Part shown: positions 1,412-5,202 of the stretch, in pieces
How positions within the stretch are numbered: the first letter of the stretch is position 1
Layout of the letters: every line of letters begins with the position of its first letter
Source of the DNA: a virus
Taxonomy: Duplodnaviria; Heunggongvirae; Uroviricota; Caudoviricetes
IMG/VR virus record: IMGVR_UViG_2684622619_000018
DNA: 5,317 nt
Strand: one strand, 5' to 3'
Translations under genes and position numbers: made by a program
Notes under the pieces: model-generated
What the model was told of the DNA's origin: nothing
Database searches by the model: none
What the model saw: only the letters and a program-made list of their open reading frames with translations

Positions 1412-1567
1412 TTACTCCTCAGGTTCGTAAGCTGTGAAGACAGCGACCTCCGTCTGGCCGGTTCGGANTCGTACCTCGCAGAGGTCTTTCCTCGTTACCA
1501 GTGCCGTCACTATGACGGTTAAACAGATGACGATCAGGGCGATTAACATCGCCTTTTGCTGCTTCAT
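1412..1567 (-). CDS. hokD: Hok/Gef family type I membrane toxin (HokD/RelF-type), 51 aa
   Basis: Minus-strand translation from ATG 1567: MKQQKAMLIALIVICLTVIVTALVTRKDLCEVRxRTGQTEVAVFTAYEPEE (x is the N at 1468). It has a single transmembrane helix and the conserved C-terminal Cys, and matches E. coli HokD as I recall it. AAGGAG Shine-Dalgarno lies 9 nt upstream. The in-frame ATG at 1624 (70-aa ORF in the track) is probably not the start. Confidence 0.85.
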   Translation of the reverse strand: MKQQKAMLIALIVICLTVIVTALVTRKDLCEVRXRTGQTEVAVFTAYEPEE

Positions 1568-1784
1568 AACCTGCTTCTCCTTGCCTTTCGGCGCGTAAGA
1601 GGCTAACCTACGTTTGTGAAGCATAGATTGGGCCTCAGATTAATGTTAAGCGTCTTGCAGGACGCGTAATGTTAACTGGGGCTTTTCTCTGTCTGCCTTA
1701 CGGTGGCATGCCCGAGGCAGACAGCCTCAAGCACCCGCAGCAATTCTACTTAACTCTCGCTTTACAGCAAACCGTTTTGCCCGA

Positions 1785-1810: not shown

Positions 1811-1915
1811 TCAGTTCCCCAGGCGCTCCATCAAAAACACAACCAGGCAGTAAACACCCACAACAGCAATAACAGCCAGAGCGCCTTCCATTACCAGTGA
1901 AATATCATCCGACAT
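1811..1915 (-). CDS. Unannotated small ORF: 34-aa single-pass membrane peptide (MSDDISLVMEGALAVIAVVGVYCLVVFLMERLGN)
   Basis: Not in the ORF track (below its length cut-off). ATG at 1915 is preceded by AAGGGAGGGAAT, a strong Shine-Dalgarno at correct spacing. Codon use is E. coli-like (CTG, GGC, GCT). Residues 10-28 form one hydrophobic helix. TGA stop at 1811-1813. Confidence 0.4.
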   Translation of the reverse strand: MSDDISLVMEGALAVIAVVGVYCLVVFLMERLGN

Positions 1916-2024: not shown

Positions 2025-2588
2025 TCATTGGTTCTCCCCCTGTGTCGCTTCTACTGCGATCTGACTGGCGTATTCGTTAATGGTAACGATAAGTTCTTGC
2101 TCGGCCTCATCCAGACAACTACCGATACCTCGCCTGTCCACTTCAGAAGCATCGAAATCTGCACGAAGCCTGGCGACCTTCAGGATTGCGGACAACACCT
2201 CATCAGGGATTGCCGGAGAGTTGGTTGACGTTTCCGAGATTATCCGAAAATTATTGGTTGACGAACCCTTATTTTCCCGAAAGTTTCCAGCCTGAAGCAT
2301 GGCGGCGCGGTGACACCAGATAATCCAGCCAAGCGCCATATCCCATGCCATGTATTCTCTATCGCCATTTTTTGCTCTGCGGCGATCTACAGATTCCCCG
2401 AAACGCTTCTCCATAAATAATTCATAGGCTGCCCGTTCATCCGATACTGATGCCAGTGATGCCAGTGCAATTTTTAATGCGGTAAGCATGTTGTTTTGAT
2501 CTTCATCGAGTCCGAACGGTATTTCATCCCGTGATGACTCAATTCCGGTAATCGTGTTCTGTAGCCATTCTTTGGTTAATTCAGTCAT
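2025..2588 (-). CDS. Hypothetical protein, 187 aa, no recognisable domain (ORFan accessory gene)
   Basis: ORF-track 2025..2588 with ATG start and an in-frame TGA one codon upstream. It is AT-richer than the replication genes and uses rare E. coli codons (AGA, ATA, CTA, TTA, AGG). No convincing Shine-Dalgarno; a GC hairpin (2598-2613) sits 9 nt upstream of the start. Confidence 0.55.
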   Translation of the reverse strand: MTELTKEWLQNTITGIESSRDEIPFGLDEDQNNMLTALKIALASLASVSDERAAYELFMEKRFGESVDRRRAKNGDREYMAWDMALGWIIWCHRAAMLQAGNFRENKGSSTNNFRIISETSTNSPAIPDEVLSAILKVARLRADFDASEVDRRGIGSCLDEAEQELIVTINEYASQIAVEATQGENQ

Positions 2589-2714
2589 TTTTCACTACCG
2601 CCCTTTCGGGCGGTCTCCTGATGTTCTGAGGGTGCAGGAATCCCTCCGGTTAAGGATTTAATAAAAATCATTTCTGATTTAAATTTTCAGTGTTTAGTTG
2701 TTGGTTTATAGCCT

Positions 2715-3026
2715 TTATGCTTCGGCCTTATTTCTCAGCCATACACAAACAGGACCATCTTCGGTGTCATGTATCGAACCGATAAACCATCCCTCACCTT
2801 CTGGTCGCTCAGGTTCCCATGCTGAAATATCAGGGCCATCTGCGTCCAGATTAAAATCATCTTCATCCATACTACGGATAGCCCACTGAAGATTATTTTT
2901 CTCCATCCAGGCGTTAAACTCTTCCGTTGAAATATATTCCCGACCATCACAGAATTTTTCATATTCAGGATGCGTCCAGCAGCCATATTCATTACGTTCC
3001 ACTGGCATTTCTTTAATTACGCTCAT
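2715..3026 (-). CDS. Hypothetical highly acidic, Trp-rich protein, 103 aa
   Basis: ATG at 3026 is preceded by AAGGGGGG 4 nt upstream. Its start overlaps the upstream gene's stop as ATGA. By my count about 25 Asp/Glu against 9 Lys/Arg, and 6 Trp. Confidence 0.6.
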   Translation of the reverse strand: MSVIKEMPVERNEYGCWTHPEYEKFCDGREYISTEEFNAWMEKNNLQWAIRSMDEDDFNLDADGPDISAWEPERPEGEGWFIGSIHDTEDGPVCVWLRNKAEA

Positions 3027-3211
3027 TTACCCCCCTTATTTAATTTTCTACGACACTTTTTACAATCATCTGGACTTTCGAATGTATCCGGCTCACGCTC
3101 ATTGCCAAAATACATCCACCCACCGCAAATACTTGTTATTTCACCTTCAGCAAAATAATGATGTTTTTTCGCCATAAGTGGCCTTGCCCAGCCCGGATTC
3201 GTTTTACTCAC
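3023..3211 (-). CDS. Hypothetical small Cys-containing protein, 62 aa, GTG start
   Basis: GTG at 3211 sits 6 nt after a perfect AAGGAGG and overlaps the upstream stop as GTGA. Four Cys (…SICGGW…DDCKKC…) suggest a possible zinc ribbon. An alternative ATG start at 3175 would give 50 aa. Confidence 0.5.
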   Translation of the reverse strand: MSKTNPGWARPLMAKKHHYFAEGEITSICGGWMYFGNEREPDTFESPDDCKKCRRKLNKGGK

Positions 3212-3564
3212 TTGTTGCCTCCTTTGCGAAGCTCTGCGACTAACTCGTCACATATGTGCGTCAAAGAGCAAAGTTTGATTGCTGGATGTTCGCGCACCAT
3301 CTCCACACCCTGCGCCCGCAATTCTGCCAGAAAAGCGTAGGGGTCAGTTTTTTCACTGTGGTACATGGCATCATAGATAATCATTGCAGCGACACCTGCC
3401 TGTCCTGCATCTGTGACGGATATATGCTCAAGGGCTACGGCCATTGCGTGTTTCAACCTCTCATTTTCCACCTCAAGCACCACACGATTAGCCTCCAGCT
3501 CTTCTATGCGTTTTTTTGCTGCTCCCAGCTCAACACGCAGCTCCTGATAGTTAATCTCGCTCAT
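3208..3564 (-). CDS. Hypothetical protein, 118 aa, with a coiled-coil-like N-terminus
   Basis: ATG at 3564 is preceded by GGGAGGAAGGAGA, a very strong Shine-Dalgarno, and overlaps the upstream stop as ATGA. The N-terminus (ELRVELGAAKKRIEELEANRVVLEVENERLK) has a heptad-like pattern. Confidence 0.6.
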   Translation of the reverse strand: MSEINYQELRVELGAAKKRIEELEANRVVLEVENERLKHAMAVALEHISVTDAGQAGVAAMIIYDAMYHSEKTDPYAFLAELRAQGVEMVREHPAIKLCSLTHICDELVAELRKGGNK

Positions 3565-3785
3565 TCTCCTTCCTCCCGCACTGCTGTTTTATATGCCCGA
3601 AGCACATGCGATGTTTTTCCTGACACAGTGCTTCTCAGAAAGAAAATTCCACTGGTGTTTATTACCAGATACGGGTCAGCAAGACGCAGCATATCCAGTA
3701 TGTGATTATGTTTTCTTGTTTCCAGCACCGTACTTGAAATAAGCATATGTGACACGGGGCCGAAATCATGATATCTGATTTTCAT
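3561..3785 (-). CDS. Hypothetical protein, 74 aa
   Basis: ATG at 3785, 21 nt after the upstream stop, with a GGTGA-type Shine-Dalgarno. Its stop overlaps the next start as ATGA. Confidence 0.45.
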   Translation of the reverse strand: MKIRYHDFGPVSHMLISSTVLETRKHNHILDMLRLADPYLVINTSGIFFLRSTVSGKTSHVLRAYKTAVREEGE

Positions 3786-3806
3786 ATCATCACCCTGCTG
3801 TAAAAA

Positions 3807-4505
3807 TTACCCGTTATCTCCTGTCGTTATTTTCTGTATGACATCACGATGCTTATTAATTTCCCGCAGCGCGGCGCATAAGCGCTCCCACTTCTGAACC
3901 TGACCTTTTGCCCGGCGCAGCTCGCGGTTAGCCACATGCAGCGATGGTAAAATCAGACCATCCGGATGCTTTCTGATGAACGACGACTGTGACTGCACTG
4001 TGACCGCCACACTTTCAGTTTTAATTTCTTCCTGTGTTTCCGCTTCCCGGACTGGTAACGCAACACCTGCCGGCTGAGGAAAGGCTTTACCATCGGTTTC
4101 CGTTACCGATGCAGCTTTCGGCTCTGCCGGTAAATTATCGCCCGGTATGCAGTAACGATATTTACCGTCCTGATTTACGCGAATCAGACGACCTTTGCTG
4201 ACAGCCATCGCCAGTGATGAATTCGCCCGGCGGGAGGTAATCCCGAACATTAACGCCAGTTCGTCAGCCGACTGAGGACCATGCTGTTCAATCGCGTTAA
4301 TCAGCATCTCTGCAGTGGTTTTTGGGGCCGCTTCAGTTGCCTCACTCGTCAGCCACCACATCGACCCCTTGTTATCAGCTTCGCCACGACGCTTCAGCTT
4401 CCAGAGTTCGGTAACAGCATCGTCACGGCTGATTTCAAGACGGGCTGCAATCTCGTGCGACGAGGCTTTTTTCAGTGCTTTCAGTGCGTCAAAAACGGTT
4501 TCCAT
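3807..4505 (-). CDS. Putative DNA-binding protein with two tandem winged-helix-like modules, 232 aa
   Basis: ORF-track 3807..4571 is trimmed to ATG 4505 because GGGAGGA lies 8 nt upstream and 4571 would overlap the P-like gene. Two similar segments by eye: [41 protein letters not shown]… and [46 protein letters not shown]…. Confidence 0.55.
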
Positions 4506-4539
4506 TAAATTTTCCTCCCGGTAAAAATTACTTCTCAAC

Positions 4540-5202
4540 TCAGACAAAACCGGCCGCCTTCCGGCGCTCATATTCCTGTTTCAGCAATTCAATTGGCGTT
4601 GGCCCTGGCGGGCGTTTGGGTGCTGCCAGTTGTCGCCGGACTGGCGGAACACTGAGGCCATTACCAACATGCTTTGCCCATTTCGTCAGCTGCCTTTCCA
4701 CAAGCCGTTTTAACTCCCCTTCGGTCATCTGGCGCTCAATCCCCTTTGAACGCATCTCGAGGCAAATGTGGTACAGCACCGGCTGTGGCCACGGGTATTT
4801 ATCACTCCCGTCGTACCGCCAGGATTCATTCCTCCAGCGACGGTACTCCTCCATCACGGCATCCACCGTCAGGCCAAATGGATTTGCCCCGCTCTCCGAA
4901 ATCAACGCCACAAACTCAGCCAGGTCCGGAGGCCACGTTTCACCCGCCCGGCAGCGGTCCATGCACTGACGGCAGACCTGCCGGATTTGCTGTTCAGTCA
5001 TCGCGCCAATCTGAGCAATCCAGAGCTTCGACGGCGCAGCCCCGTTCTTCTGGGTCCAGCGGTTCGAATACACCTCCCCCATAAGTTCCCACAGCTTCCA
5101 GGCCGTTTCCGTTGCTGATAAATCCGTTTTCACGTTCCCACTGTTCACGTGCTGCCCGAATTTCCTGAACTGCCCGTGATGCGGTGCCACCTGGTGCTGC
5201 AT
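4540..5202 (-). CDS. Lambda P-like replication protein (DnaB helicase-loader family), 220 aa
   Basis: The C-terminal ~150 aa align by eye with lambda P as I recall it (MTEQQIRQV…/TMEQVNAGMRV…, [32 protein letters not shown], and the same distance to the C-terminus). ATG 5202 has AAGGGGGTAAGCC upstream. The G-rich third-position codon style of the certain part continues up to 5202. The start could instead be 5082 or 5001. Confidence 0.65.

Follow-up and report, generated by a model that had tools for sequence, protein, structure and literature searches.

We have analyzed a stretch of DNA 5,317 nt in length (the window) from the tailed-phage record IMGVR_UViG_2684622619_000018 of IMG/VR. It belongs to a lambdoid prophage of Escherichia coli O157:H7, and is 100% identical to the prophage in strain PV15-279, for example. 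The window contains four small open reading frames (ORFs), which we call ORF74, ORF118, ORF62 and ORF103 after the lengths of their products, and each overlaps the next by 4 nt. An earlier note on this DNA put them forward as a candidate accessory or anti-defence cassette. We find that all four are real genes under purifying selection, and that they are very probably a patchwork of independently shuffled accessory genes rather than a conserved cassette.

The chain of minus-strand ORFs, with its starts and its ATGA, GTGA and ATGA overlaps, is just as the earlier note had described it:

3561-3785, minus strand: ORF74, 74 aa, ATG start
3561-3564, minus strand: ATGA stop/start overlap of ORF74 and ORF118, on a mosaic breakpoint
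3208-3564, minus strand: ORF118, 118 aa, ATG start
3208-3211, minus strand: GTGA stop/start overlap of ORF118 and ORF62
3023-3211, minus strand: ORF62, 62 aa, GTG start
3023-3026, minus strand: ATGA stop/start overlap of ORF62 and ORF103, on a mosaic breakpoint
2715-3026, minus strand: ORF103, 103 aa, ATG start

The four genes are not conserved as a unit

We surveyed the co-occurrence of the four genes at 41 genome loci anchored on diverged relatives of ORF103, 53 viral loci anchored on relatives of ORF62, and about 190 loci anchored on diverged relatives of ORF74. All four are found together only where the copies are at least 95% identical to the window, i.e. in near-identical E. coli copies, and among 5,426 complete E. 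coli genomes 343 have this arrangement. Neither ORF62, ORF118 nor ORF74 lies within 6 kb at any of the 41 diverged ORF103 loci, and the ∼190 diverged ORF74 loci are likewise devoid of the other three genes. ORF103 is adjacent to ORF62 just once among about 33 diverged ORF62 loci, in the contig L071. The conserved cassette thus fails on the point that the earlier note had itself named, i.e. conservation of the four as a unit.

The exchange can be seen directly in L295, a related E. coli element. Its DNA is 92.8% identical to the window over positions 3554-3955 (the end of the DUF1627 gene that precedes ORF74, and ORF74 itself), and 92.4% identical over 2292-3025 (ORF103, the following intergenic region and the start of the next gene, ORF187). 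It has no DNA similarity to positions 3026-3553, corresponding to ORF118 and ORF62. In their place are a helix-turn-helix (HTH) gene and a second paralog of the ORF74 family. The two ORF74-family genes of L295 lie at 4001-4225 and 4527-4754 with the HTH gene between them, and are respectively 85% and 38% identical to ORF74. Thus the block is not inherited intact even among close relatives; the middle pair has been replaced between flanks that are 92-93% identical. Both breakpoints fall on ATGA overlaps, one at 3561-3564 and the other at 3023-3026. Since recombination exchanges genes at these boundaries, there are at least three mosaic modules and no co-evolving cassette. Module A would comprise the 3′ end of the DUF1627 gene and ORF74, module B would be ORF118 plus ORF62, which have no DNA counterpart in L295, and module C would be ORF103 together with the 5′ part of ORF187 and the intergenic DNA that separates them. 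Over its first 100 aa (window 2289-2588) ORF187 has 86% identity with the N-terminus of a DUF551 protein of L295 (5189-5719), but the C-termini of the two proteins differ. Mosaic exchange therefore occurs inside genes as well.

Other E. coli prophages with the same flanks have quite different genes in the slot between DUF1627 and hokD/DUF968. These include the runs DUF977-DUF4406-Ea22-like, DUF977-QueH and DUF4406-DUF4752-Ea22-like-DUF551-IbrAB.

The 4-nt overlaps are generic junctions

The earlier note regarded the four ORFs as almost certainly co-translated. Translational coupling within one transcript is indeed probable, but the overlaps are not the sign of a functional unit. In the ORF74 family (192 loci) there are 4-nt overlaps at 127 of 191 upstream junctions and at 140 downstream junctions, and the flanking genes fall into at least 10 unrelated neighbor clusters on each side. 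Diverged relatives of ORF62 and ORF103 overlap whatever gene adjoins them, including traU and a DUF2726 gene on plasmids. The O-P-ren and nin genes of lambda are joined by the same kind of overlap. The 4-nt overlap is the generic junction of such arrays regardless of the neighbor, and therefore provides no evidence for shared function. ATGA-type coupling may be seen as a syntax that survives gene shuffling, with recombination breakpoints sitting on the overlaps, so that coupling alone is no basis for inferring cassettes. A run of overlapping small ORFs in the accessory region of a lambdoid prophage is expected and ordinary, and the demonstration that the overlaps define no functional unit should curb over-interpretation of such runs.

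The closest known systems are the ren/nin array of lambda and the 'exo-xis' arrays of lambdoid phages. These are likewise composed of short same-strand ORFs in early operons with overlaps of 1-11 nt (mostly 4 nt), and are likewise dispensable, mosaic and exchanged at gene boundaries. The ren/nin genes occupy the same position as the four ORFs, between P and Q. Yet the four ORFs lack sequence homology to Ren or NinB-NinH, and relatives of three of the four are usually found in the early-left (exo-xis) operon and not the early-right. As AT-richer accessory genes inserted in a prophage the four also resemble phage morons. Morons carry their own promoter and terminator, whereas the segment of the four ORFs has neither detectable above chance.

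Could the four genes nevertheless co-function in anti-defence, with a DNA-mimic-like acidic protein, a zinc protein and two partners acting together to relieve restriction or another defence? The tight translational coupling, the AT-richness of the segment, the conserved acidity of ORF103 and the fusion of ORF103 domains to Lar and Tad2-like domains (discussed below) would be in keeping with this, as would L071, the only diverged contig in which an order of three to four of the genes recurs. But the four genes are not conserved as a unit, ORF118 and ORF62 have been exchanged in L295, and the overlaps are generic. None of the four is similar to any known anti-defence structure or family, and the plasmid homologs of ORF103 lie in tra operons, outside the leading region. 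We consider such a cassette highly improbable, and equally so any joint role of the four in counter-defence or host takeover.

Genomic context and coding properties of the four ORFs

The genes of the window are all on the minus strand. The order of transcription begins with the end of a DnaT-like/O-type replication gene, followed by P, DUF1627, ORF74, ORF118, ORF62 and ORF103, and continues with ORF187, a 34-aa hydrophobic peptide, hokD with sok RNA, a 135-aa ORF and DUF968. The full prophage as annotated in RefSeq has the order cro, ydaT, O-like, P, DUF1627, the four ORFs, ORF187, hokD, DUF968, rusA and Q, and in PV15-279 it is located beside a tRNA-Ser gene, between mtfA and yeeJ. The four ORFs are therefore on the same strand inside an early operon, between core modules, and the gene order of window and prophage together indicates that they are part of the early-right operon, at the place of the lambda ren/nin genes.

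Strong Shine-Dalgarno sequences precede ORF118 (GGAGGAAGGAGA), ORF62 (AAGGAGG) and ORF103 (AAGGGGGG), in agreement with the near-consensus sites that had been reported at the overlaps. That of ORF74 is only moderate (AGGGTGA). The segment had also been described as AT-richer than its flanks, and its G+C content is 45.1%, compared with 54.7% for the upstream replication genes and 52.1% for the downstream genes. Comparison with diverged copies gave dN/dS ratios of 0.07 for ORF62, 0.13-0.35 for ORF103, 0.18-0.68 for ORF74 and 0.32 for ORF118, which indicates purifying selection on each of the genes. Within 2715-3785, sites that resemble promoters or terminators are not above chance.

The earlier note recognized no domain in the four proteins, and none reached threshold with any Pfam, NCBIfam or PADLOC model. 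The PADLOC defence models gave no match at E values up to 1, and there was no Pfam or PHROG match to the Nin and Ren families. Each protein is assigned in PHROGs to a family of 'unknown function', and a literature search on the accessions and PHROG identifiers found no report. The view that the four are accessory genes is supported.

A plus-strand ORF of 149 aa (3256-3705) lies antisense to ORF118 and ORF74. It is probably spurious, given that it is absent from the RefSeq annotation and that the conserved genes are those of the minus strand.

ORF74, ORF118 and ORF62

ORF74 is a basic protein (isoelectric point (pI) 9.6) of PHROG 1001. A deep homolog search returned 3 clusters only. Relatives with 33-49% identity are encoded near xis/int in Stx phages, Fels-1 and Klebsiella phages. 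A DUF1627-like gene precedes the ORF74 relative in phage phi24B and in L295 also. We considered DUF1627-ORF74 as a conserved pair, but most loci of the family have another upstream gene (Rha-like, a gene for an 84-aa protein, and others), and the pair was rejected. The family has at most a weak tendency to follow DNA-binding proteins.

ORF118 (PHROG families 492/368) matches the Pfam family Ead_Ea22 (PF13935) with E = 0.004 and 18.1 bits, below the 27-bit cut-off. Partial tblastn matches of patchwise 48-86% identity were obtained to genes annotated as ead/Ea22-like or Eae. With the Ea22/Ead/Eae proteins of lambda and P22-like phages ORF118 appears to have in common the MSEIN N-terminal motif (MSEIN-Q-LR in the comparison with lambda Ea22) and the coiled-coil character, with a weak overall BLASTP match to lambda Ea22 (E = 0.007). 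Lambda Ea22 is however longer, 182 aa compared with 118 aa, and its C-terminal domain, the structure of which has been solved (PMC10834534), is unrelated to that of ORF118. Judged from its sequence, ORF118 appears to be an Ea22-like coiled-coil protein with a C-terminal domain of its own, a mosaic of Ead/Ea22/Eae-type segments. In several lambdoid loci ORF62 is preceded by proteins with the C-terminal segment of ORF118. Two of these proteins are bona fide members of Ead/Ea22, and module B may therefore be a semi-stable pair.

The Ea22-like character of ORF118 raises the question of whether these are genes of the exo-xis type, modulators of lysis versus lysogeny or of host physiology that have moved from the early-left to the early-right operon. 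Ea22 favors lysogeny, and exo-xis genes affect lysogenization and induction (PMC7093339, PMC3824215, PMC10834534). In favor of this explanation, the usual place of ORF74, ORF118 and ORF103 relatives is between recombination genes and xis/int. Yet no characterized exo-xis gene has an ortholog among the four, ORF118 lacks the C-terminal domain of lambda Ea22, and the ORF103 family is found also in plasmids, which make no decision between lysis and lysogeny. We regard this origin and role as rather unlikely.

ORF62 is a basic protein with three cysteines (PHROG 2358). The earlier note had likened its cysteine pattern to that of small zinc-binding anti-defence proteins. H17, H18, C29, C50 and C53 are invariant in 17 sequences, a set of conserved residues large enough for the four Cys/His ligands of a zinc site. 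With all three cysteines and two histidines thus conserved, a zinc site is plausible, but there is no link to anti-defence proteins. RefSeq places the start of ORF62 at an internal ATG, giving a product of 50 aa and abolishing the GTGA overlap. The homologs (16 clusters, plus tblastn matches) conserve an N-terminal GWARP motif upstream of that ATG, and for this reason the GTG start, and hence the overlap, is to be preferred. Two further assignments were rejected. ORF62 is not a Kunitz/BPTI protein, as it has neither six cysteines in three disulfides nor significant similarity. The coordinates of PHROG profiles suggested that ORF62 and ORF103 might be halves of one fused protein, but the long relatives of ORF103 are never fused to ORF62.

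ORF103 belongs to a large family of phages, plasmids and integrative elements

The earlier note pointed to the extreme acidity of ORF103. With a pI of 4.21 and 25 Asp/Glu residues against 9 Lys/Arg, this description is accurate, and the property extends to the whole family, which is uniformly acidic (median pI 4.21, net charge −16). The motif GWF-GSIHDTEDG-VC-WLR is strongly conserved. ORF103 is a member of a large un-named family of phages, conjugative plasmids and integrative elements, with at least 924 clusters at 50% identity in a profile search. None of 74 members matches a Pfam model. Neither the sequence nor the profile of ORF103 matches any chain in the PDB, where it has no structural relative, and a search of BFVD matched only uncharacterized homologs. 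The predicted fold is compact alpha/beta, with two helices on a three-stranded sheet.

Phage homologs are found in Escherichia, Erwinia, Klebsiella, Yersinia, Burkholderia, Vibrio, Pseudomonas and Acinetobacter hosts. In other prophages the relatives of ORF103 lie among early-left genes of exo-xis type, with N, ERF/RecT, DUF1317, Ea22, TraR zinc finger, orphan methylases, Xis and Int as neighbors. By tblastn we found homologs in 2,029 plasmid records, 1,756 of which are predicted to be conjugative. Most are from Klebsiella, with over a thousand plasmid records of that genus, and WP_004152383 is the accession of a Klebsiella plasmid homolog. The homolog ends the tra operon of Klebsiella IncFII plasmids, in the order traI, traX, finO, PIN, hypothetical, DUF2726, homolog. 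In the K. pneumoniae IncFII plasmid NZ_CP082990.1 (locus L096, 7002-9309) finO is followed by this conserved four-gene tail of PIN domain, hypothetical, DUF2726 (nuclease-like) and ORF103 homolog genes, the last two overlapping by 4 nt. In an IncFIC plasmid, and in 16 of 41 species-level genome loci on chromosomal or plasmid elements, the homolog lies between traW and traU, with traU immediately downstream. The homologs are therefore located within tra operons or at their distal end, and not in the leading region, which is where the anti-defence genes of plasmids cluster (PMC11541004).

Some members are fused to other domains. Over Pfam thresholds these are Lar (proteins P0158 and P0205), a Tad2-like domain (P0188), an Rv2179c-like exonuclease and a DHH/DHHA1 phosphoesterase. 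Lar and Tad2 are thus linked to the ORF103 domain by fusion or neighborhood only, and a Pfam search found neither domain in the proteins of the window. In a further protein, P0200, the ORF103 domain is fused to a segment resembling ORF187.

The earlier note also saw a resemblance to DNA-mimic or other anti-defence proteins. No structural or sequence link connects the four proteins with any known protein of these kinds or with any defence protein, and this suggestion was not upheld. ORF103 is like the DNA mimics T7 Ocr and ArdA in being small, with a pI of 4.2, and in its carriage by phages and conjugative plasmids. It differs from them in lacking sequence or fold similarity, in a predicted fold that is compact rather than elongated and DNA-like, and in the position of its plasmid homologs outside leading regions. 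The possibility that the Klebsiella plasmid homolog is the anti-CRISPR AcrIE10, a ribbon-helix-helix (RHH)-plus-helical protein with solved structures (PMC13530269), was ruled out, as the ORF103 sequence and profile match no PDB chain. The PIN and DUF2726 neighbors of the plasmid homolog were considered as a known defence system, but gave no PADLOC matches.

There remains the idea that ORF103 alone serves counter-defence or host takeover, as an acidic decoy that blocks a basic DNA-binding host protein, with the other three genes as unrelated passengers. Its acidity throughout the family would fit such a role, as would its distribution over phages of many Proteobacteria, ∼2,000 plasmids and 16 integrative or conjugative elements. 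So would the fusions to Lar, Tad2-like, Rv2179c-like exonuclease and DHH/DHHA1 domains, and the orphan Dam and C5 methylases and DndB among its neighbors. The fusion partners may however reflect neighborhood only, since an indel of one base at an overlap easily fuses adjacent genes. Moreover the plasmid copies are placed in tra operons, away from the leading region, and the fold is without a relative. We therefore entertain this explanation tentatively, as one that is possible but on balance unlikely, and the same holds for a counter-defence or host-takeover role of ORF103 in general. That the family, which is spread over temperate and virulent phages, plasmids and integrative elements of Proteobacteria, should constitute a new class of this kind is a little more doubtful. 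An example would be a decoy for a conserved basic DNA-binding protein of the host, sequestering a target that must be neutralized by phages and plasmids alike, and this too we think rather improbable.

Of the four proteins ORF103 alone is noteworthy, and its family is nevertheless a lead worth following. The family is widespread, conserved and acidic, it lies outside Pfam and the PDB, and it is sometimes fused to anti-defence domains. Its carriers include clinically important Klebsiella IncFII plasmids, and its characterization would provide an annotation for thousands of genes, now labelled 'hypothetical', that are carried by O157 prophages and resistance plasmids.

Expression and likely roles of the four genes

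The explanation that we prefer is a mosaic run of independent accessory genes, expressed from a long early transcript and coupled by default, and we consider it very likely to be correct. The segment would be part of the delayed-early rightward operon in an O157:H7 lambdoid prophage, occupying a slot for variable cargo that extends from the replication genes (DnaT-like/O, P, DUF1627) to hokD-DUF968-rusA-Q. The four genes would be transcribed within the long early transcript without a promoter or terminator of their own, and translated by termination-reinitiation at the 4-nt overlaps. Recombination would swap genes at exactly the overlap boundaries, generating the modules A, B and C. Most likely each product would be a small protein that acts on its own in early development by binding a macromolecule of the host or the phage. 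ORF118 would be a coiled-coil oligomer of Ea22 type, the kind of protein that shifts the balance between lysis and lysogeny. ORF62 may be a basic small protein stabilized by zinc, ORF74 a basic companion of winged-helix regulators, and ORF103 a conserved acidic domain that would probably sequester a basic host protein.

Several points count against this explanation. The co-occurrence survey used tblastn with single sequences, which very diverged relatives of ORF74 or ORF118 could escape. The diverged contig L071 (63-69% protein identity) has the order Ea22-like, ORF62, ORF103, Ea22-like with 4-nt overlaps, and Ea22-like proteins with the C-terminus of ORF118 sit before ORF62 in several lambdoid loci. 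For these reasons some pairwise linkage (within module B, or of B with C) may be functional rather than merely recent. Lastly, we infer transcription from pR and translational coupling from the anatomy of the segment and knowledge of lambdoid phages, and the role proposed for each protein likewise.

Alternatively the genes might serve to protect the lysogen instead of aiding the phage, through superinfection exclusion or anti-phage defence. Such genes are frequent in the accessory regions of prophages, and a hok/sok locus lies just downstream of the four. However, none of the four has a PADLOC match, the products are very small single-domain proteins, and no promoter of their own was detected, which a repressed prophage would need for their expression. 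We consider protection of the lysogen very unlikely.

Other features of the window

The features that flank the mosaic run are:

4540-5001, minus strand: replication protein P
3807-4505, minus strand: DUF1627 winged-helix gene, the upstream flank (RefSeq coordinates; ORF74 begins 21 nt later)
2025-2588, minus strand: ORF187, a modular protein, the downstream flank
1811-1915, minus strand: strongly hydrophobic peptide of 34 aa, MSDDISLVMEGALAVIAVVGVYCLVVFLMERLGN (RefSeq annotation, between ORF187 and hokD)
1562-1736, minus strand: sok RNA (Rfam match, 114.9 bits)
1412-1567, minus strand: hokD, containing one N at 1468

The hok/sok locus (1412-1736, minus strand) is a complete type I toxin-antitoxin locus. 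The 34-aa peptide may be a small membrane protein. The sole strong hairpin of the window that resembles an intrinsic terminator with a T-run is on the minus strand (1322-1403 and 1326-1343). It overlaps a sub-threshold match to isrK, a family of Hfq-binding small RNAs, with 27 bits against a gathering score of 50. The DUF968 gene contains a run of 50 N (masked or a gap) at 361-410, which splits it into two apparent ORFs. The integrase gene of the prophage, in L001 (1938-4301), is broken by IS1203, an element of the IS3 family, and as a consequence the prophage may be unable to excise normally.

The intergenic RNA between ORF103 and ORF187 (2580-2720) has a folding z-score of −2.96. Upstream of ORF187 on the minus strand is the potential hairpin ACCGCCC-GAAA-GGGCGGT (2597-2614), with a G+C-rich stem of 7 bp and a GAAA loop. 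It lies between a GGAG sequence (2615-2618) and the ATG at 2588. If formed, the hairpin would in effect leave ∼8 nt between the Shine-Dalgarno sequence and the start codon, i.e. a 'split SD'.

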